Source: a virus
Lineage: Duplodnaviria > Heunggongvirae > Uroviricota > Caudoviricetes
DNA: 7,032 nucleotides
Virus record (IMG/VR): IMGVR_UViG_648276650_000006
Reading direction: 5' to 3' (one strand)
The translations under genes and the position numbers were made by a program. Under the pieces are notes generated by a model that had not been told where the DNA came from, made no database searches, and saw only the letters and a list, made by a program, of their open reading frames with translations. Of this stretch, positions 1 through 6,813 are shown piece after piece. Numbering within the stretch: position 1 is the first letter of the stretch; each line of letters begins with the position of its first letter.

Positions 1-32
1 GCGGGGGCGGGGGGGGGGGGGGGGGGGGGGGG
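1..32. repeat. Homopolymeric poly-G tract at the window edge, probably a sequencing or assembly artefact
   Basis: Seen in sequence: GCGGGGGC followed by an uninterrupted run of about 24 G (9..32) at the extreme 5' end, with no coding or structural context. Confidence 0.5.
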
Positions 33-62
33 CTTTGGGAATATGCGGGTGTGGGGAGATTG

Positions 63-473
63 TCAGTAACCGGTTTGTACCTTATACAGCCGCAGGGTTT
101 TGCTGCCCCGAACAATCTTCACATACAGGGCATTATCTTCCGCGCTGCGTACAAAACCGGCCTTCACATCGCCCTTACAGTCACCACCATCGTAAGGAAC
201 ATTGATGCCGGTCTGGCGCACCAGGTCGATAATCCCGAAGCTTAAATCTTCACAGGCTGGGCCCGGCAGGTCCTGAATCAGGGCAAATTTATGGTCGTCG
301 CTGACACCGGTCAGTGAGCACATGGACGTATTGATGTCGTTTCCCTGGCACCAGTACTCCTGGCCGGGATTGTCTTTATCCATCAGACTTGCCGGAAGCT
401 GAGCGGCACCGGCACTGAAGGCGGCAAGTGACAGAATGAGGGCAGGTACAGCAGAGGTCATTATTTTCAGCAT
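63..473 (-). CDS. Small secreted/periplasmic 4-Cys protein with N-terminal signal peptide (YfjT/YkfB-like, tentative)
   Basis: 136-aa ORF. N-terminus MLKIMTSAVPALILSLAAFSAGAA-QLP has the n/h/c layout of a Sec signal peptide with an AxA-type cleavage site. AGGAAG Shine-Dalgarno lies 6 nt upstream of the ATG at 473. Mature part has 4 Cys, including W-C-x9-C. Family name is from recollection, not a search. Confidence 0.6.
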   Translation of the reverse strand: MLKIMTSAVPALILSLAAFSAGAAQLPASLMDKDNPGQEYWCQGNDINTSMCSLTGVSDDHKFALIQDLPGPACEDLSFGIIDLVRQTGINVPYDGGDCKGDVKAGFVRSAEDNALYVKIVRGSKTLRLYKVQTGY

Positions 474-539
474 GGTCTTCTTCCTGAATTAATCCAGCCC
501 GCTGTCGGGCAAAATGAGAGAGGTTGATATCGGGTGTTA

Positions 540-977
540 TCAGAAGCGCCGGTAGCGAAACAGCTCTTTGCCCTGGTAAAGTGCCACCAGGTCGTCATAT
601 TCCGGCTTCTTCTGGTTGGGTTTAAAGGTCACTACCGTGCCCGGACGGCACAGGTCTTTTACGGTGAGTCCGTATTTCTTGTCCGGAGTAATGGTGAATC
701 CTTTCGACACATCGTTGCGCATGATAGTTATCCAGCCCCACAGGCCGCCTTCGCAGTCTTTAAAGGGTGCGGAACGCACCGTGACCATCCCGCCCAGGCG
801 GTCAACAGACATGGCTTCGCATTTTCCGGTAACCTGACGATGCGCATCGCACCAGAAAATGTTCCCGTTGTTGTCATTAACTACAGCAGGGAGGGTCCGG
901 TTATAAGGCTGAGCCTGAGCGCCCACACAGAGCAGAAGGCTGCCGGTAATACCCAGTACTTTAATCAGTGTTTTCAT
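540..977 (-). CDS. Small secreted 4-Cys protein with signal peptide, paralogous to the 63..473 product (YfjS/YafY-like, tentative)
   Basis: The track ORF 540..1103 starts at a GTG and would overlap the upstream gene by 85 nt. The internal ATG at 975..977 has an AGGA 8 nt upstream, leaves a 41-nt intergenic gap, and gives MKTLIKVLGITGSLLLCVGAQA-QP, a typical signal peptide. Shares the W-C-x9-C pattern with the neighbouring ORF. Confidence 0.55.
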   Translation of the reverse strand: MKTLIKVLGITGSLLLCVGAQAQPYNRTLPAVVNDNNGNIFWCDAHRQVTGKCEAMSVDRLGGMVTVRSAPFKDCEGGLWGWITIMRNDVSKGFTITPDKKYGLTVKDLCRPGTVVTFKPNQKKPEYDDLVALYQGKELFRYRRF

Positions 978-1018
978 TACGTTGGTCCTAAACAGAGAAA
1001 GAATCAGGTAGCGGTCAT

Positions 1019-1555
1019 TCAGGCCCAGACAGTCAGGGCCAGCATCAAAAGCCATACCCAGAAGTAAGCCGGTTTCTGACCGAGAGTTTTCGCCCGCCGC
1101 CACAGATAGAACGGCACCAGCCAGGCCAGTTTGCCGAACGTGGTGGTGTCCACTCCGGCCTTACGCAGGCGTCGTTCATCGAGATACCCCAGAGCAATAT
1201 TGAGCAGCAGCGTGATAAACCAGTACTGCCCACCCGAGACGGCATCATATGCCTCGTCAAATGACATCCCGCTCAATCCTGCAGTCCACAACTCCAGCGC
1301 GTAGCCAATGAAGGGAGCAAATGCCAGCGTCCACACAACGCCACCCGGAATGCGGTTCCCCGGCAGCGCTGGTGGTGTGGTGCTCCGGAGCAGCGTCGAA
1401 GCCAGCGGAGTAGCGGAGACCGGCTGCCACTCTGCCATTCCCTGTCGCCACACCAGAGTGGATGCAGTCAGTTCACCGCGCATAATCAGGCTGGTGATGT
1501 CGTCTTCGGTCACATTGTCGTGGCGTATGCCATTTTTCTCGTAATGCCAGGTCAT
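1019..1555 (-). CDS. Membrane protein with N-terminal DUF4339 (GYF-like) domain and hydrophobic C-terminal half
   Basis: 178-aa ORF. N-terminus WHYEKNGIRHDNVTEDDITSLIMRGELTASTLVWRQGMAEWQP matches the DUF4339 pattern as I recall it (W-Y..G...GP/V..L..L...G.L...TLVW..GM..W.P). C-terminal half has several hydrophobic stretches (DUF2628-like by recollection). AAGGA Shine-Dalgarno about 6 nt upstream of the ATG at 1555; 25-nt gap to the upstream regulator stop. Confidence 0.6.
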   Translation of the reverse strand: MTWHYEKNGIRHDNVTEDDITSLIMRGELTASTLVWRQGMAEWQPVSATPLASTLLRSTTPPALPGNRIPGGVVWTLAFAPFIGYALELWTAGLSGMSFDEAYDAVSGGQYWFITLLLNIALGYLDERRLRKAGVDTTTFGKLAWLVPFYLWRRAKTLGQKPAYFWVWLLMLALTVWA

Positions 1556-1580
1556 TGTTTTTCCTTCTTAACAGAGGTAA

Positions 1581-2204
1581 TTAAATCAGTGTGTTGCCCG
1601 GCTCCTCCTCTGAGGGCCCAGGAGACAGGACTTCACGGATACAGCTGAAGTGCGGAAGGGCCCGGATAAAGCCCGCCTGTGTGGTTAACTGGCTGAGACG
1701 TTTTAGCGGGGTGAAAGTTGTATTGAGGACTGTCACCGCATGGATGGTCGCCAGTGGATGCACGGTGATATGCCCGTTAAGTTCACCGGTGAGGTACCAG
1801 CAGCCGTCGAGTGATATCAGGCGGTACGGGGCCAGTCCGTCACAGCGCTCTCCCTCAGCCAGCAGCAGTACCCGTTGGCAGGCGGTAATAGCACTGACGA
1901 GACGGTAGAACACCAGTGAGGTGGCCGGTGATATAGTCTGTGGCGGTTGCCACACCAGACAGGGCATCCCTCCTGCTGTGAGCAGCATGCCCGCCAGACG
2001 CCGGTCCAGCCCCGGAAAGATATCGGCCAGTCCGGACCGGTGAGCAAAGGTCAGCGCATCCAGCTCACCCTGTACGCCCCCACTGGTGCTGCGCAGGCGG
2101 CATTGCCCTCGTCGATACTCCAGGTCCAGATACATCAGCCGTTCGCGAAAATCCCGTCGCAGGGTACGGACTGACACACTAAACTCTGCAGCCAGCCGGG
2201 CCAT
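1581..2204 (-). CDS. yfjR: HTH (DeoR-type) + WYL-domain transcriptional regulator, YfjR-like; coordinates are the longest canonical-start ORF, which appears N-terminally truncated
   Basis: ORF contains the HTH recognition region LAAEFSVSVRTLRRDF and a literal WYL motif (LDGCWYLTGELNGH). The frame stays open 29 codons upstream (to 2291), encoding (I)TQAERRHDRLAVRLSLIISRLVAGETLN, which completes helix 1 of the HTH. That stretch has no ATG/GTG/TTG; it begins at an ATA codon (2289..2291) with GGAG 7 nt upstream. Symbol is by family recollection; paralogues in other islands are possible. Confidence 0.55.
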   Translation of the reverse strand: MARLAAEFSVSVRTLRRDFRERLMYLDLEYRRGQCRLRSTSGGVQGELDALTFAHRSGLADIFPGLDRRLAGMLLTAGGMPCLVWQPPQTISPATSLVFYRLVSAITACQRVLLLAEGERCDGLAPYRLISLDGCWYLTGELNGHITVHPLATIHAVTVLNTTFTPLKRLSQLTTQAGFIRALPHFSCIREVLSPGPSEEEPGNTLI

Positions 2205-2499
2205 GTTCAGCGTCTCACCGGCAACCAGGCGGCTGATTATCAGTGACAGCCTGACAGCCAGTCGGTCGTGACGGCGCTCTGCCTGTGTTATCTCAAATCT
2301 CCGTAATAATTAACTGACTGAATATGAAATGATTCTAAAGAGGGGGGCGGACAGGGTATGGACATGGAATGAACTATTTTTTATCTGCCACCGGAGGCAA
2401 GCCCAACGCGGCGCACCGTGAAATACGGTGATAAAACACTCAATCCAATGGAGGTAAAACGGACAGGGAGTGTCCTTTCCCAACATGCTGATAACAAGC

Positions 2500-3324
2500 T
2501 CAGGACTGAAACCCACTCAGCATCGCTTCCGCCATCACCCAGAGAGCCCGGTTGAGCTTCACATCGCCGTCGATACCACGCACGGCGCGGGTGTGTGTTC
2601 GCCCACCTTTTGCACTCCGGCCACTGAGCCCGCCCTTAATCAGGTTCTCCTGAATACGCTGGTATGTGGTCCACAGGTCATTGCTCTCATCCTGCCAGCG
2701 GCGTGGGGAGAGTATCTGAGGTGCTGTCACCGGCTGGTGGTCCTCACCAAAACGGTACGTCAGTGCAGCCTGTGCCAGAGCCTGTTGTGCAGGTGGCGGC
2801 AGCATCAGCGACTGCATGGCATCCCGCTTCTCTTCCACACGGTCAAAAATACCCAGCACTTCATACGCCCCCTCAATCACCTGACTCACGACATCTCCTT
2901 TGTGCGGTACCCGCACCTCGCCGAACGATTCACCGCAGACAAGCCCGTTCTGGCATACCGCACGGAATAATCCCGGTAACATCTGATACGAGCTGGTGCC
3001 GTCATGAGAATTGAGCAGAATGATTTCTGGGACTTGCTTGCCAGTAATTTGTCCCTCCCGGCGCAGACGTAACATATGCTTTGTATGCTCGCGACGCCCT
3101 GGGTCACGCACCCGGGTCTGGCAGGCAAAGAAAGGCTGAAAGCCTTCACACTGCAGATTTTCAAGAACGGTAATGGTTGGTATCCAGGTATACCGTGCGC
3201 TACGAGACGCATGCTTCTCCTCGCTGAAGACACTGGGCACTACACGAAACAGCTCTTCCTGGGTTAACGGACGGTCACGACGAATAAGGTTTGCTGCGCC
3301 AAAGCGCGAAGCCAGACGGGTCAT
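2500..3324 (-). CDS. yfjQ: DUF932-family protein (YfjQ/YafZ-like)
   Basis: 274-aa product from the second in-frame ATG (3322..3324), which has a perfect AGGAG 7 nt upstream; the track start at 3339 lacks an SD. N-terminus MTRLASRFGAANLIRRDRPLTQEELFRVVPSVF matches my recollection of YfjQ/YafZ proteins, and length is close to the ~273 aa I recall. Lies directly after a GTPase gene as in CP4-57-type islands. Confidence 0.6.
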   Translation of the reverse strand: MTRLASRFGAANLIRRDRPLTQEELFRVVPSVFSEEKHASRSARYTWIPTITVLENLQCEGFQPFFACQTRVRDPGRREHTKHMLRLRREGQITGKQVPEIILLNSHDGTSSYQMLPGLFRAVCQNGLVCGESFGEVRVPHKGDVVSQVIEGAYEVLGIFDRVEEKRDAMQSLMLPPPAQQALAQAALTYRFGEDHQPVTAPQILSPRRWQDESNDLWTTYQRIQENLIKGGLSGRSAKGGRTHTRAVRGIDGDVKLNRALWVMAEAMLSGFQS

Positions 3325-3350
3325 AAGCAGACTCCTCATGATGGAAAATT

Positions 3351-3387
3351 AAATACAAAAAGCCCCGCCGCAAAATCGCGGCAGGGC
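3351..3387 (-). terminator. Rho-independent terminator-like hairpin between the GTPase and DUF932 genes
   Basis: Minus-strand RNA: stem GCCCUGCCGC / loop / GCGGCGGGGC (10 bp, one mismatch; plus 3362..3387), followed 3' by UUUUUGUAUUU (plus-strand A-run 3351..3361). Begins about 30 nt after the GTPase stop and ends about 25 nt before the DUF932 start. Confidence 0.55.
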
Positions 3388-3418
3388 TCAGGAAACTACG
3401 GGTTAGAAGGGTTAATGT

Positions 3419-4282
3419 TCAGAAGAAGAAATTCCAGACTGCACGGGCGACTGATACCACGATGTCGCGCACAGACTGGATGACTGACCGAACCTGGGCC
3501 GGTATCAGGGGCATGGAACTTACTGTATCCAGTACCGAGCCGACCGTTTCACCAAAATCGTCACGGGCTTTTTTATTAACGGCATCGGTACGAAGTGGCG
3601 CACTGAGTTGTACTGCCACCTGACTACTGGCCTCCCGTGGCAAGCAACGAATCATCCGCTCAGCCATCATCCGCAGCCCCCACTGCAAACGTATCGACAC
3701 CGCACAGACAGGGTTTACAGGTTGGAACAACTCATGCAGCAGACAGATTTTGAGGCTGATATTTCGTTTCTGCTCTGTAGACAGCTTTTCACCACCGCAG
3801 GTGGGTTCAACCTTGTCAGACTGGCTGATAACAAACAACACCTTATGCCGGTATGCTTCACCAATCACCTGCCGGTAAAAATGTTCATCTACGGCCAGCG
3901 CCCGATCATCACCCTTAATCAACCACAGAACCAGATCCAGCTGGGGGAGCTGTTTACGGTACAGCGTGGCATACTCTGTATCCCGGCGCTCAGACTCCCC
4001 GACGCCGGGTAAATCCACCAGCGTCATAAAGCGCTTCCCCACTTGCAGGCGAAAGCGTAAGGGTTCGCGTGTGCAGGCGGTCACATCGCTGACCGGTGAA
4101 ATCTCACCGGTAAACAGGGCATTACATAAGCTGCTCTTGCCCGAGCCAGTTTTACCCATGATGCCAATCACCGGCTCATAGTCAGTAAGCTGATTTATCT
4201 GCTGCAGAATACGCTCTGATGCCCAGTGCGGCAGGTTAGAAAGCGAATGCTGCAGTGACTGTAAACCTTCAAATTGATTCAT
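3419..4282 (-). CDS. yfjP: P-loop GTPase of the YfjP/YkfA/YeeP family (50S ribosome-binding GTPase-like domain)
   Basis: 287-aa ORF. Walker A/G1 GIMGKTGSGKSS, G3-like DLPG. AGGAG Shine-Dalgarno 5 nt upstream of the ATG at 4280..4282. Length matches what I recall for YfjP/YkfA (287 aa). The yfjP versus ykfA assignment rests on the downstream DUF932 and WYL-regulator order and is not certain. Confidence 0.7.
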   Translation of the reverse strand: MNQFEGLQSLQHSLSNLPHWASERILQQINQLTDYEPVIGIMGKTGSGKSSLCNALFTGEISPVSDVTACTREPLRFRLQVGKRFMTLVDLPGVGESERRDTEYATLYRKQLPQLDLVLWLIKGDDRALAVDEHFYRQVIGEAYRHKVLFVISQSDKVEPTCGGEKLSTEQKRNISLKICLLHELFQPVNPVCAVSIRLQWGLRMMAERMIRCLPREASSQVAVQLSAPLRTDAVNKKARDDFGETVGSVLDTVSSMPLIPAQVRSVIQSVRDIVVSVARAVWNFFF

Positions 4283-4300
4283 TACTGCTCCTCTGAAATG

Positions 4301-4335
4301 AAAACAAAAAAGGCAAGACCGTGAGGTTCTGCCTT
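4301..4335 (-). terminator. Terminator-like hairpin plus U-tract in the leader immediately upstream of the GTPase gene
   Basis: Minus-strand RNA: about 11-bp stem (plus 4310..4320 pairing with 4325..4335; one mismatch, one wobble), loop GUGA, followed 3' by UUUUUUGUUUUC (plus A-run 4301..4311), then the AGGAG SD and ATG. It faces transcripts entering from the AT-rich cargo side. Confidence 0.5.
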
Positions 4336-4384
4336 TAATGAGGTATGTTCAGGGGAATGATATATATCTGAATATTTTTAGAAT

Positions 4385-4430
4385 GCTGATAGGCCGTTCT
4401 GTGCCAGGAGCGGACGTTGCGAACGCTTTG
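4385..4430. repeat. Left copy of a degenerate ~46-bp direct repeat (core GTGCCAGGAGCGGAC)
   Basis: Manual alignment to 5363..5408 at a constant offset of 978 bp: core 15-mer 14/15 identical, flanks 9/16 and 7/15, about 30/46 overall. Located in the divergent intergenic region upstream of the Toprim gene. Confidence 0.45.
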
Positions 4431-4570
4431 AGACTGATGATCATTTCAGATGTTAATTAATTAAAGGCATGGTAATGTTTAGGCTCTGTAGGGTAAATTT
4501 CCCGCAGTATTTTCGGTTATCAATAGCTTGTGGAGTTAACTCTCAGAGGGGGCAGTTAGTGGGAACAACA

Positions 4571-5269
4571 ATGGAGGACATCCAATACGAAGAAATGTTA
4601 AATGAGCTTCTATTCGAAAAAGTAATGAAGAATGAAGCAAAAAAACAATGCATTTACATTTTTGTCGAAGGTGAGTCTGAAGAACTTGCTTTTCAACCCT
4701 TACTTGAAGACTGTGGTATAGATTTCGATAAGCTTGGTATTGTAATTGCAAATTACAATGGGATTGGTAACTTAAAACACGCCATAAGACTTCTACATAA
4801 AACATTGAGCCATGATCGACCAATAATAGTAACGTATGATGATGATCATGAAGGAAAAATAATAAAGAAAATAAATAGCCCATTGATCACATACTTTAAA
4901 ATACCATTTAGCCCTGTAGTTTCTTATAATGATGGAACTTTAGGCGGAACATTTGAAGAAAGCTTTCCTAAAGATTGCTTTATAGAAGCTTGCTTTCAGC
5001 AAAATGTTATAGCTAGTTCTTTTTTATCAAAACGTAATGACTTTGAAAAAAAATTCAATCCAACTCAGCCATGGTTAGCTCAATTAGCACAATTCATTTC
5101 TTCCAATGGTGGGACTCCTAATTCTATAAATAAAACAAAATTAGCTGAAAACATGATGCTTTCAGTATCTCAGATACCTGAAACCTATAATGAGTTAGCA
5201 AAGTTAATCATTGATATTAGAAACAAGACCCCAATAAAACACCCTGAAAATGTAGATTTGAATTTGTAA
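4571..5269 (+). CDS. Standalone Toprim-domain protein, a putative nuclease with an OLD/AriB-like catalytic core
   Basis: 232 aa from the ATG at 4571, where G+C content drops; the track ORF begins at ATG 4469, which is an alternative start. Toprim signature seen directly: hydrophobic strand IYIFVEGESEE with E33, and IIVTYDDDHEGK with D90-x-D92-x-x-G95. No Walker A motif in this ORF or in any adjacent ORF. Markedly AT-rich with A/T-ending codons, unlike the backbone. Confidence 0.6.
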   Translation: MEDIQYEEMLNELLFEKVMKNEAKKQCIYIFVEGESEELAFQPLLEDCGIDFDKLGIVIANYNGIGNLKHAIRLLHKTLSHDRPIIVTYDDDHEGKIIKKINSPLITYFKIPFSPVVSYNDGTLGGTFEESFPKDCFIEACFQQNVIASSFLSKRNDFEKKFNPTQPWLAQLAQFISSNGGTPNSINKTKLAENMMLSVSQIPETYNELAKLIIDIRNKTPIKHPENVDLNL

Positions 5270-5362
5270 ATAATACTATTTATTTTCACGCACTGATTTT
5301 TCCGCGTTTGGTAGGTATTATCGCAACGTCCTATTTTCACTCATAGCTGCCCTACCTACCTT

Positions 5363-5790: not shown

Positions 5791-6813
5791 ATGTTAGACT
5801 TAGAATATGCTGTAACTGAGCCTTTTTTAAATTACCATTTATTTCATGAAGGATTAAATACGAAGGTTAAGGTTTTAACCTCATCACTTAATCATGTGAT
5901 TGAATATTTATTGACGCCAGGCAATGAAAATAAAATGAATGAGCTCATTAAGAAAACTGATAAATCTTGGCAATTCCCGCCGAATTTTTCACTTCCAAGC
6001 CCTCCAGTTGATGAATCAAATTTAAAAAATAAAACATCATCAAGAAGACTAGATAAGGAAGAGGATAATAATGAATTAGATTATCAATTAAAGAAAAAGG
6101 AATTAGCGCAAGAGATGTTGTATTGGTATGTAAGTGAAATGGCTATATTTGGCACTTTTTCTGCTTTGGATGATTGTATTGTCGATATTGATTCTTGGTT
6201 TTCAAGTTGGGCAATGTTTAATAACACTCAAGATAAAAAATCGGAATCAACCAGTAGTAACAAAATTGAAAGGTTATATGATTCACACGAATGGAACATG
6301 AAGAACATAAAGACATTCCTTCCGATTTATGAGTATTTTTCAGCAGTTAGAAATTCAATAGCTCATAGGCAATCCAAAGCATCTCATAAGTTATCAGAGA
6401 TATCAAAATCCCAAGAATTAAAAGAGTCAGTAGAGAGAAACTTCCCAAAAGGTAAACCATTAAGTGAATTTGAATATAATGAAGATATATTCATCTCTCC
6501 AAAAACGTCGTTGCTTTGTTCTCACATAATAAGATTAATTTTCGAAGATATCAATAAATACATCATAAAAAAAATGGGTATTGAAGGTATCATCTACATG
6601 TCATGCAAACTTGCATTTGAACCATCATCTTATAATGAAAGCAAAGTTGTTAACTTAGCTAGAAATAGATTGAACGAAATCGTTAGTGGTCGATATCATG
6701 TAATTATAAAAGGTGAGGATGAAGCCGTTAAGGTTGCTGAGTCACTTGGCATTTGGCGTGATTGCGCTAAATTTCATGCGAACAATATGAGGAAATTAGA
6801 TCCAAAATTCTAA
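5791..6813 (+). CDS. Hypothetical 340-aa protein with an R-x4-H (RNSIAH) HEPN-like motif; candidate Abi-like RNase
   Basis: Long uninterrupted AT-rich ORF. AAGG lies about 10 nt upstream of the ATG, a weak SD. No P-loop. The single motif R187-N-S-I-A-H192 (nt 6349..6366) has the RNxxAH form common in HEPN RNases, within a predicted helical stretch (FLPIYEYFSAVRNSIAHRQ). The CDS call is stronger than the functional call, which rests on one short motif. Confidence 0.6.
   Translation: MLDLEYAVTEPFLNYHLFHEGLNTKVKVLTSSLNHVIEYLLTPGNENKMNELIKKTDKSWQFPPNFSLPSPPVDESNLKNKTSSRRLDKEEDNNELDYQLKKKELAQEMLYWYVSEMAIFGTFSALDDCIVDIDSWFSSWAMFNNTQDKKSESTSSNKIERLYDSHEWNMKNIKTFLPIYEYFSAVRNSIAHRQSKASHKLSEISKSQELKESVERNFPKGKPLSEFEYNEDIFISPKTSLLCSHIIRLIFEDINKYIIKKMGIEGIIYMSCKLAFEPSSYNESKVVNLARNRLNEIVSGRYHVIIKGEDEAVKVAESLGIWRDCAKFHANNMRKLDPKF

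Follow-up and report, generated by a model that had tools for sequence, protein, structure and literature searches.

The closest described counterparts of the element studied here are the intrinsic terminators in the 5′ untranslated regions of Escherichia coli genes, in which a stem-loop and U tract lie downstream of the promoter and ahead of the start codon, as catalogued by 3′-end mapping (Adams et al. 2021, PMC7815308). The leader of a GTPase gene in the 7,032-nucleotide stretch of DNA that we analyzed (hereafter, the window) shares this layout and, like the members of that set, is predicted to yield a short 5′ RNA alongside a read-through mRNA. It differs from them in being absent from the catalogue, in having no riboswitch, leader peptide or alternative fold, and in belonging to a horizontally transferred island cassette with several copies per genome. 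The trp, pyrBI, T-box and riboswitch systems also carry a terminator in the leader of the regulated gene; unlike these, the GTPase leader has no leader ORF, no antiterminator fold and merely 5–17 nt ahead of the stem. Terminator T1 of rpsU–dnaG–rpoD is an intercistronic attenuating terminator inside an operon. It finds a parallel wherever a terminator stands here between co-directional genes with nearly no spacer to the next Shine-Dalgarno, as in relatives with an upstream gene X or Y (described below) and in the GTPase–DUF932 spacer; the difference is that at the GTPase leader a predicted promoter separates the terminator from the stop codon upstream.

A further point of comparison is provided by lambda PR′–tR′ and by P. 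aeruginosa PalpB–tB and PA0807, where a conserved element between −35 and −10 is followed by a terminator a few tens of nucleotides downstream; in Pseudomonas this element is the AlpA binding element, and the intrinsic terminator lies tens of base pairs downstream of it (PMC7969949, PMC9371919). The GTPase leader has a conserved box and a terminator-type hairpin at corresponding places, and it also shares with the Q/AlpA modules the presence of further terminators within the operon and of AlpA-family genes near many of the islands. In contrast to those modules, the box is unrelated to the AlpA element GGGACG-N5-GGTA, a sigma-dependent pause element is not evident, the window has no AlpA gene, and an antiterminator is hypothetical.

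The GTPase–DUF932–antirestriction–RadC–CbeA/CbtA backbone that this leader precedes is among the commonest island scaffolds of the Enterobacterales (CP4-57/CP4-6/CP4-44-type; K-12 carries three copies), and the variable region just upstream of it holds defence and resistance cargo. We found no paper on transcription of the GTPase–DUF932 backbone; full-text literature searches did not return the stem and box sequences and, with the gene names, yielded nothing on regulation. The leader terminator is apparently undescribed, while the kind of signal it represents is well known. A promoter-plus-terminator cassette at this position would offer a concrete handle on the timing of island antirestriction and toxin–antitoxin expression.

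A terminator-type hairpin ahead of the GTPase gene

The minus-strand letters 4336-AAAGGCAGAACCUCACGGUCUUGCCUUU-4309 form a stem of 8+3 base pairs with one G·U pair, one 1×1 A·C mismatch and a UCAC loop, the arms reading 4336-AAAGGCAG-A-ACC-UCAC-GGU-C-UUGCCUUU-4309 (Table 1). The initial annotation had described an approximately 11-bp GC-rich stem. The count of 11 pairs stands, but “GC-rich” was generous for a mismatched stem with just five G-C pairs, three A-U pairs at its base and one G·U. On the 3′ side of the stem, UUUUUUGUUUUC is followed by GAGGAG and by the GTPase ATG at 4282; read from the hairpin, UUUGUUUUC extends down to 4300, then comes AUUUCAG, then GAGGAG. The arrangement AGGAG-N5-ATG is as first described (AGGAG at 4292..4288, minus, five nucleotides, then the ATG), whereas the U tract does not pass immediately into it, the seven nucleotides AUUUCAG lying between them.

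Table 1. Coordinates of the features discussed in the text (window positions unless a locus is named)
Feature	Position	Strand	Basis or remark
Terminator-type hairpin	4336..4309	minus	sequence, folding, U-tail scoring, covariation
Hairpin core GGCAGAACC-UCAC-GGUCUUGCC	4333..4312	minus	
U tract UUUUUUGUUUU	4311..4301	minus	U-rich tail after stem in nearly all relatives
Shine-Dalgarno GAGGAG	4293..4288	minus	sequence
GTPase start codon ATG	4282..4280	minus	opens ORF 3419..4282
−35-like hexamer TTCTAA	4383..4378	minus	15-bp spacer to −10
Conserved box TTCAGATATATATCATT	4356..4372	minus	near-invariant columns, 70 leaders, GTPases 41–100% identical
Predicted sigma-70 −10 hexamer TATCAT	4362..4357	minus	leader alignment; K-12 spacers bind RpoD holoenzyme (PMC3946193)
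Predicted transcription start G4350 or A4349	4350..4349	minus	within invariant TGAA, 7–8 nt past −10
Outer edge of conserved backbone, roughly 40-bp block	4379..4418	minus	homology end, GC fall
GTPase gene, 287 aa, MMR_HSR1/dynamin-N type, YfjP/YkfA/YeeP family	3419..4282	minus	PF01926, E 6.5e-15
Second, strong intrinsic terminator (predicted)	3360..3389, U tract to about 3352	minus	13-bp stem, 9 G-C pairs
DUF932 (YfjQ-like) gene	2500..3339	minus	PF06067, E 3e-52
Gene X	L008:1970-2902; L017:1742-2878; L026:1736-2902; L073:1875-2837		
Gene Y	L031:2131-2883; L001:9206-10003		

RNA folding bears the hairpin out. A 63-nt leader has a minimum free energy (MFE) of −15.9 kcal/mol (z −2.4; 4 of 200 shuffles equally good), and the predicted 50-nt terminated RNA reaches −14.7 kcal/mol (z −4.0; 0 of 200). 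The GC core by itself contributes −8.8 kcal/mol, as against −14 to −16 kcal/mol with its flanks, and this weak core may make for poor termination at the window's copy. A simple terminator scan did not pick the hairpin up because of the mid-stem mismatch. We therefore applied a score that joins hairpin energy with the U tail, a formula of the d'Aubenton-Carafa/Lesnik type computed with ViennaRNA energies and carrying an approximate threshold, which gave d=+18.6 at this site. Across both strands of the 7-kb window only two sites scored positive, the GTPase leader hairpin and the terminator 3′ of the GTPase gene, and none of 120 random windows from related loci did so. The plus-strand version of the hairpin has merely UUUAAUG after the stem and scores negative, which makes the signal orientation-specific; a bidirectional terminator was rejected on the same ground. 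Letters, fold, score and the conservation described below all agree with the earlier claim of a minus-strand terminator-like hairpin ahead of the GTPase gene and, judged from the sequence, this is a real and evolutionarily conserved terminator-type signal.

The second site is considerably stronger (−22 to −25 kcal/mol; d=+48.7 for the scored site 3387..3362). It begins 29 nt past the GTPase stop, and the stretch of about 20 nt from its end to the Shine-Dalgarno of the DUF932 gene leaves no room for a promoter. It is kept in the subfamily with 75–100% identity and absent from the 53% subfamily. The window's only two terminator-scoring sites thus bracket the GTPase gene, whose homologues are annotated in E. 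coli as “GTPase family protein”.

Conservation and covariation across the Enterobacterales

A protein-guided scan, with one genome per species, gave 80 loci from about 40 enterobacterial genera, their GTPases being 41–100% identical; the leader set comprises 70 distinct leaders, likewise from about 40 enterobacterial genera. One hairpin of ≤−10 kcal/mol, followed by at least 5 U in 8 positions and with its end 21–35 nt before the start codon, was present in 61 of the 70 distinct leaders (87%), as compared with 0.6% of 350 dinucleotide shuffles. Hairpin energies among the relatives have a median of −16 kcal/mol and a best value of −23 kcal/mol, the window's copy being weaker. Around the hairpin the relatives share one upstream layout: an A/T-rich stretch, the box TTCAGA(Y)A(K)ATAT(Y)ATC, six nucleotides, TGAA, the hairpin, a U-rich tract, the Shine-Dalgarno and the start codon.

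The stems that occupy this constant position are unrelated in sequence among GTPase subfamilies (GGCAGAACC/GGTTCTGCC; CCCCGCC../..GCGGGG; CTCGCCTGAAT/ATTCAGGCGAG; GGCAGCAG/CTGCTGCC). Within subfamily 1, 92.8% of alignment cells are paired, against 29–56% when the 3′ partner is slid, and 6 of the 12 pairs show double-sided changes, such as C-G to U-A in 11 sequences. The corresponding figures for subfamily 2 are 78% and at most 61%, in an alignment with register problems. As read from these alignments, it is structure, rather than sequence, that is maintained by evolution. A covariance-model search of both strands of the window against Rfam 15 gave no matches at E≤1.

The comparison with the K-12 rnlB–yfjP spacer, suggested at the outset, revealed the same hairpin there, with a perfect 13-bp stem and −27 kcal/mol for the whole yfjP leader. 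The ykfA copy has the same design, and perfect stems of 10–13 bp are found in K-12 yfjP and most relatives. In the window's lineage a TC-to-CT swap in the 3′ arm has weakened the stem and, with its G·U pair and A·C mismatch, the window's copy is predicted to be leakier than most. Of 5426 complete E. coli genomes, 573 carry this leader variant, at 1338 places in all. The sole clade with a degenerate −10 (loci L079–L082) has a degenerate hairpin as well; joint decay of the two fits a putative coupled promoter–terminator unit, as seen in a single clade.

A promoter-like box upstream of the hairpin

Upstream of the hairpin, the leaders follow a near-invariant consensus, TT(C/G)NAA-15-TAT(C/T)AT, 6–7 nt, then TGAA. 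The −35-like hexamer is TTGAAA, TTCCAA or TTCAAA in most relatives, with the 15-bp spacing kept, and the box holds both a near-invariant TCAGA (about −21 to −17) and a palindrome, GATATATATC, that overlaps the −10. G4350 and A4349 (alignment columns G33 and A34) are invariant in the leader alignment. There is one copy of the box per locus, always ahead of the GTPase gene; scans of the rest of the window, of 85 loci and of the K-12 intA–alpA region gave no further copies beyond chance. A 15-bp spacer makes a poor promoter. The operon's own promoter is probably weak.

In genomic SELEX, RpoD holoenzyme bound in vitro to the K-12 rnlB–yfjP, perR–ykfA and yfjW–yfjX spacers, and TTGAAA-15-TATCAT was assigned to the yfjPQ and ykfA promoters (Shimada et al. 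2014, PMC3946193). In K-12 the box is present in precisely these three spacers; the SELEX signal has spacer-level resolution, and the hexamers are the authors' prediction (PMC3946193). Because the box lies just upstream and RNA polymerase holoenzyme binds box-bearing K-12 spacers, we assign the hairpin to the 5′ leader of the gene itself, at about +15 to +42. With a predicted +1 at 4350, the U tract would end at ~+50, and the Shine-Dalgarno and ATG would fall at +58 and +69.

Two other promoter-like sites were noticed nearby. A sigma-54 promoter, TGGCAC-AGAAC-GGCC (4405..4391), was rejected on inspection, its GG–GC spacing being one nucleotide short. On the plus strand, a consensus scan returned ATGATA-16-TAGAAT (4357..4384), directed at the TOPRIM cargo gene; it mirrors the palindromic box together with the −35 region, and the palindrome may have produced it by chance.

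The backbone/cargo junction lies upstream of the hairpin

Backbone and cargo meet at 4418/4419, which lies 83 nt upstream of the hairpin. Cargo included, the window is a 99.9% match to Enterobacter sp. Bisph1 contig NZ_JXAG01000026 (L006). In E. coli HH107, Hafnia paralvei and Cedecea davisae (L001, L005 and L007), the backbone 29..4418 is present at 99.8–99.9% and homology ends at 4418; over a wider set (these three with L023, L025, L003 and L002) it ends at 4417–4423. For backbones at 75–91% identity the end falls at 4372–4423, in no case at the hairpin and in every case on the upstream side of the promoter-like box. GC content changes from 0.48–0.60 (about 53%) in the backbone to 0.31–0.38 (about 32%) upstream of about 4400. 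Since homology and GC content both break here, the hairpin is part of the backbone, and the hairpin itself was rejected as the cargo junction. The boundary at 4418/4419 can help to delimit the cargo of such islands. Different cargo is carried in Enterobacter, Escherichia, Hafnia and Cedecea on a backbone 99.8–99.9% identical, which implies very recent transfer between genera with exchange of cargo at a fixed boundary, 4418.

The outermost part of the backbone, 4418..4379 (minus), is common to about 10 lineages with differing cargos. It reads ...PLLAQNGLSA[F/I/L]-TAA (F in the window), with the TAA at the −98 position. No intact gene with a PLLAQNGLSAF C-terminus occurred in any sampled locus, every copy being an open frame of at most 39 aa. 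The block either remains from the 3′ end of a lost gene or is non-coding and functional.

At many other loci, in all GTPase subfamilies, a gene ends here, with its stop at −98 from the ATG (some at −117 to −131) and overlapping the −35-like hexamer. We refer to two types: gene X encodes 300–390 aa with a C-terminal RHH-like part, and gene Y 250 aa with an N-terminal RHH-like part; these upstream genes are homologous across loci but very divergent. Searches of Pfam and NCBIfam gave weak RHH-type matches only and no Pfam family, and YfjH was rejected as a homologue of gene X for lack of similarity. The presence of gene X or Y upstream of the GTPase gene looks like the ancestral arrangement, probably replaced in the window. 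Further upstream of gene X/Y, by 0.5–1.1 kb, there is usually an AlpA-family gene in divergent orientation.

Discussion

Starting from the structure, position, conservation and covariation of the hairpin and from the position of the junction, all of which are observed, we infer termination, a start site and regulation, and put at roughly 0.55 the probability that hairpin and U tract constitute an intrinsic (Rho-independent) terminator serving as a 5′-leader attenuator of the GTPase gene. Three readings had been offered initially: (i) the retained terminator of an ancestral gene, marking the exact backbone/cargo junction; (ii) insulation of the backbone against read-through from the cargo; and (iii) a leader attenuator. 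The last is best supported, the hairpin lying between a conserved promoter-like box and the Shine-Dalgarno, while the first fails as stated, on position. Since the order of predicted promoter, terminator and Shine-Dalgarno is universal, the terminator would act on the gene's own transcripts, as a promoter-proximal attenuator.

We suggest that TTCTAA-15-TATCAT, as a weak sigma-70 promoter whose spacer is palindromic and conserved, and the start, hairpin, U tract, Shine-Dalgarno and ATG form one compact conserved cassette. RNA polymerase starting from its own promoter, or reading in from upstream, would reach the terminator ahead of the coding region; a fraction of transcripts would end as a 44–50 nt RNA, and the GTPase would be expressed from the read-through fraction only. 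As a promoter-proximal attenuator, the hairpin could in this way hold the backbone genes low, subject to modulation by a trans-acting factor or by general elongation factors. Stopping read-in from upstream would be a secondary role. Searchable Term-seq and long-read supplements (PMC7815308, PMC6131387, PMC10687069) have no entries for 5′ or 3′ ends of yfjP, ykfA or yeeP.

In the leader, between 4350 and 4283, there is no ATG or GTG, and the sole TTG lies inside the stem and has no Shine-Dalgarno; MFE and centroid folds give the terminator hairpin only, with no competing fold, and 5–17 unpaired nucleotides precede the stem. Control by ribosomes or by a riboswitch is excluded on these grounds, namely the lack of a leader ORF, a terminator as the only stable fold and the short 5′ segment; with neither leader peptide nor alternative fold, any control must therefore act in trans. 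A pairing of 5′ CUGAA with 3′ UUCAG, seen in a 211-nt fold, was rejected as an alternative, since most of it precedes the predicted start and subfamily 2 does not conserve it.

If control does act in trans, a dedicated antiterminator becomes conceivable as a regulated sub-case of the attenuator reading, one that we hold only tentatively and at well under even odds. An island-encoded factor, with an AlpA-family protein or the upstream-encoded RHH protein as candidates, would bind between −35 and −10, load onto RNA polymerase, pass both terminators and switch on the backbone operon. Promoter spacers are normally free to vary, and TCAGA in this one is near-invariant. No more than about 15 nt separate the predicted start from the terminator, which may be compared with the PA0807 terminator 26 bp from its promoter (PMC7969949, PMC9371919), and the strong second terminator stands about 20 nt before the DUF932 Shine-Dalgarno, with no promoter room. 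At least 24 sampled loci also have an AlpA-family gene (PF05930) in the 3 kb upstream, and in L079–L082 it adjoins the GTPase leader. It is, however, precisely in this clade, with alpA directly upstream, that the terminator is weakest, and the 7-kb window has no AlpA gene at all. Moreover, proteins of the AlpA family often serve as excisionases or activators, no copy of the box lies in the K-12 intA/alpA region, the second terminator is absent from the 53% subfamily, and a −10-like pause element at +1 to +6 is not conserved (GAACAT in subfamily 1, where A2 and T6 are kept; GAATCC in subfamily 2). The cassette, with its palindromic promoter box, TCAGA in the spacer and two terminators, might be a processive-antitermination switch of the lambda-Q/Pseudomonas-AlpA kind for the whole GTPase–DUF932–antirestriction–RadC–CbeA/CbtA backbone, again at well under even odds. 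Were the terminator factor-controlled, antitermination of the Q/AlpA type would extend to a very large class of non-phage elements.

Among the points against an attenuator, many relatives have a co-directional gene whose end lies 43 nt ahead of the hairpin, and termination of that gene could be the primary role. A somewhat less probable explanation than the antiterminator is that the hairpin serves transcription arriving from upstream, combining readings (i) and (ii): it would be the terminator of the ancestral RHH-type gene X/Y and, in the window, a barrier to read-in from the cargo. In line with this, the homologous upstream gene of 250–390 aa stops at −98 with no terminator between it and the hairpin, the upstream ORF is co-directional in 46 of 73 loci, and K-12 rnlAB reads toward yfjP. 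A part of reading (i) survives here, since the hairpin is the first terminator after the ancestral co-directional gene in many relatives; what falls is its claim to mark the junction, which is at 4418 and not at the hairpin. Retention of the hairpin is the same whether the neighbor is co-directional (89%, n=46) or divergent (89%, n=27; p=0.24), which argues against a sole role as another gene's terminator, and the window is itself among the divergent cases, both cargo ORFs being directed away. Insulation, as in reading (ii), is physically possible; it leaves unexplained the terminator's constant place downstream of the gene's own predicted promoter. With the promoter box upstream of it in every case, a terminator that insulates would necessarily act on transcripts of the GTPase gene as well.

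The hairpin could instead be a 5′-UTR element for stability or translation, the stem-loop countering 5′-end-dependent decay and the U-rich tract acting as an S1-binding translational enhancer. The U-rich tract is close to the Shine-Dalgarno, with AUUUCAG between, and the subfamily 2 stem starts about 5 nt from the predicted 5′ end. In stabilizers of the ompA type, a long unpaired 5′ stretch is incompatible with 5′-end protection, and the 14–17 unpaired nucleotides before the stem in the window's subfamily are too long for it; the run of U always right after the stem is a specific terminator signature. We consider this explanation unlikely. More improbable still is that the product of interest is a small RNA of 45–50 nt, made constitutively from the conserved promoter and acting in trans: the predicted 50-nt RNA, a stable hairpin with a 3′ U tail, does have an Hfq-binding shape, but there is no conservation of its single-stranded 5′ “seed”, which has 16 nt in subfamily 1 and about 5 nt in subfamily 2, and the RNA has no Rfam match. 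Least likely of all is a function at the DNA level, as an inverted repeat of the oriT or recombination type. A variable-sequence inverted repeat does lie beside a near-invariant 17-bp box in mobile islands, and an inovirus Gp2-type (HUH) protein is encoded by some of these islands; against this, a T tract universally follows the repeat and is specific to one strand, as for a terminator, and the cargo junction is not at the repeat.

Island cargo and a relic leader

The two cargo ORFs of the window, 4469..5269 (+) and 5791..6813 (+), are low in GC (about 32%). The first encodes a 266-aa stand-alone OLD-like TOPRIM protein (PF20469) with weak matches to the GajA C-terminus, and the second a 340-aa protein with weak HEPN/CARF-like matches only and an R-x4-H motif (RNSIAH); the pair may be an uncharacterised two-gene defence candidate. 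The same TOPRIM cargo is found in Enterobacteriaceae bacterium G50 (L070; 81% DNA identity to window 4401..5329) beside a GTPase of another subfamily (52% identity). Its occurrence upstream of differing GTPase subfamilies suggests that cargo appears to move between island lineages at this position.

In K-12, the CP4-57 yfjW–yfjX spacer (L003:3001-3142 / L004:14001-14142) contains a relic second leader with box, perfect hairpin, Shine-Dalgarno and ATG, in a spacer for which an RNAP-binding site is listed (Shimada et al., PMC3946193). The leader is followed by about 20 GTPase codons fused to a DUF905 pseudogene, which suggests that the prophage arose from two backbone copies, as a composite or by deletion.
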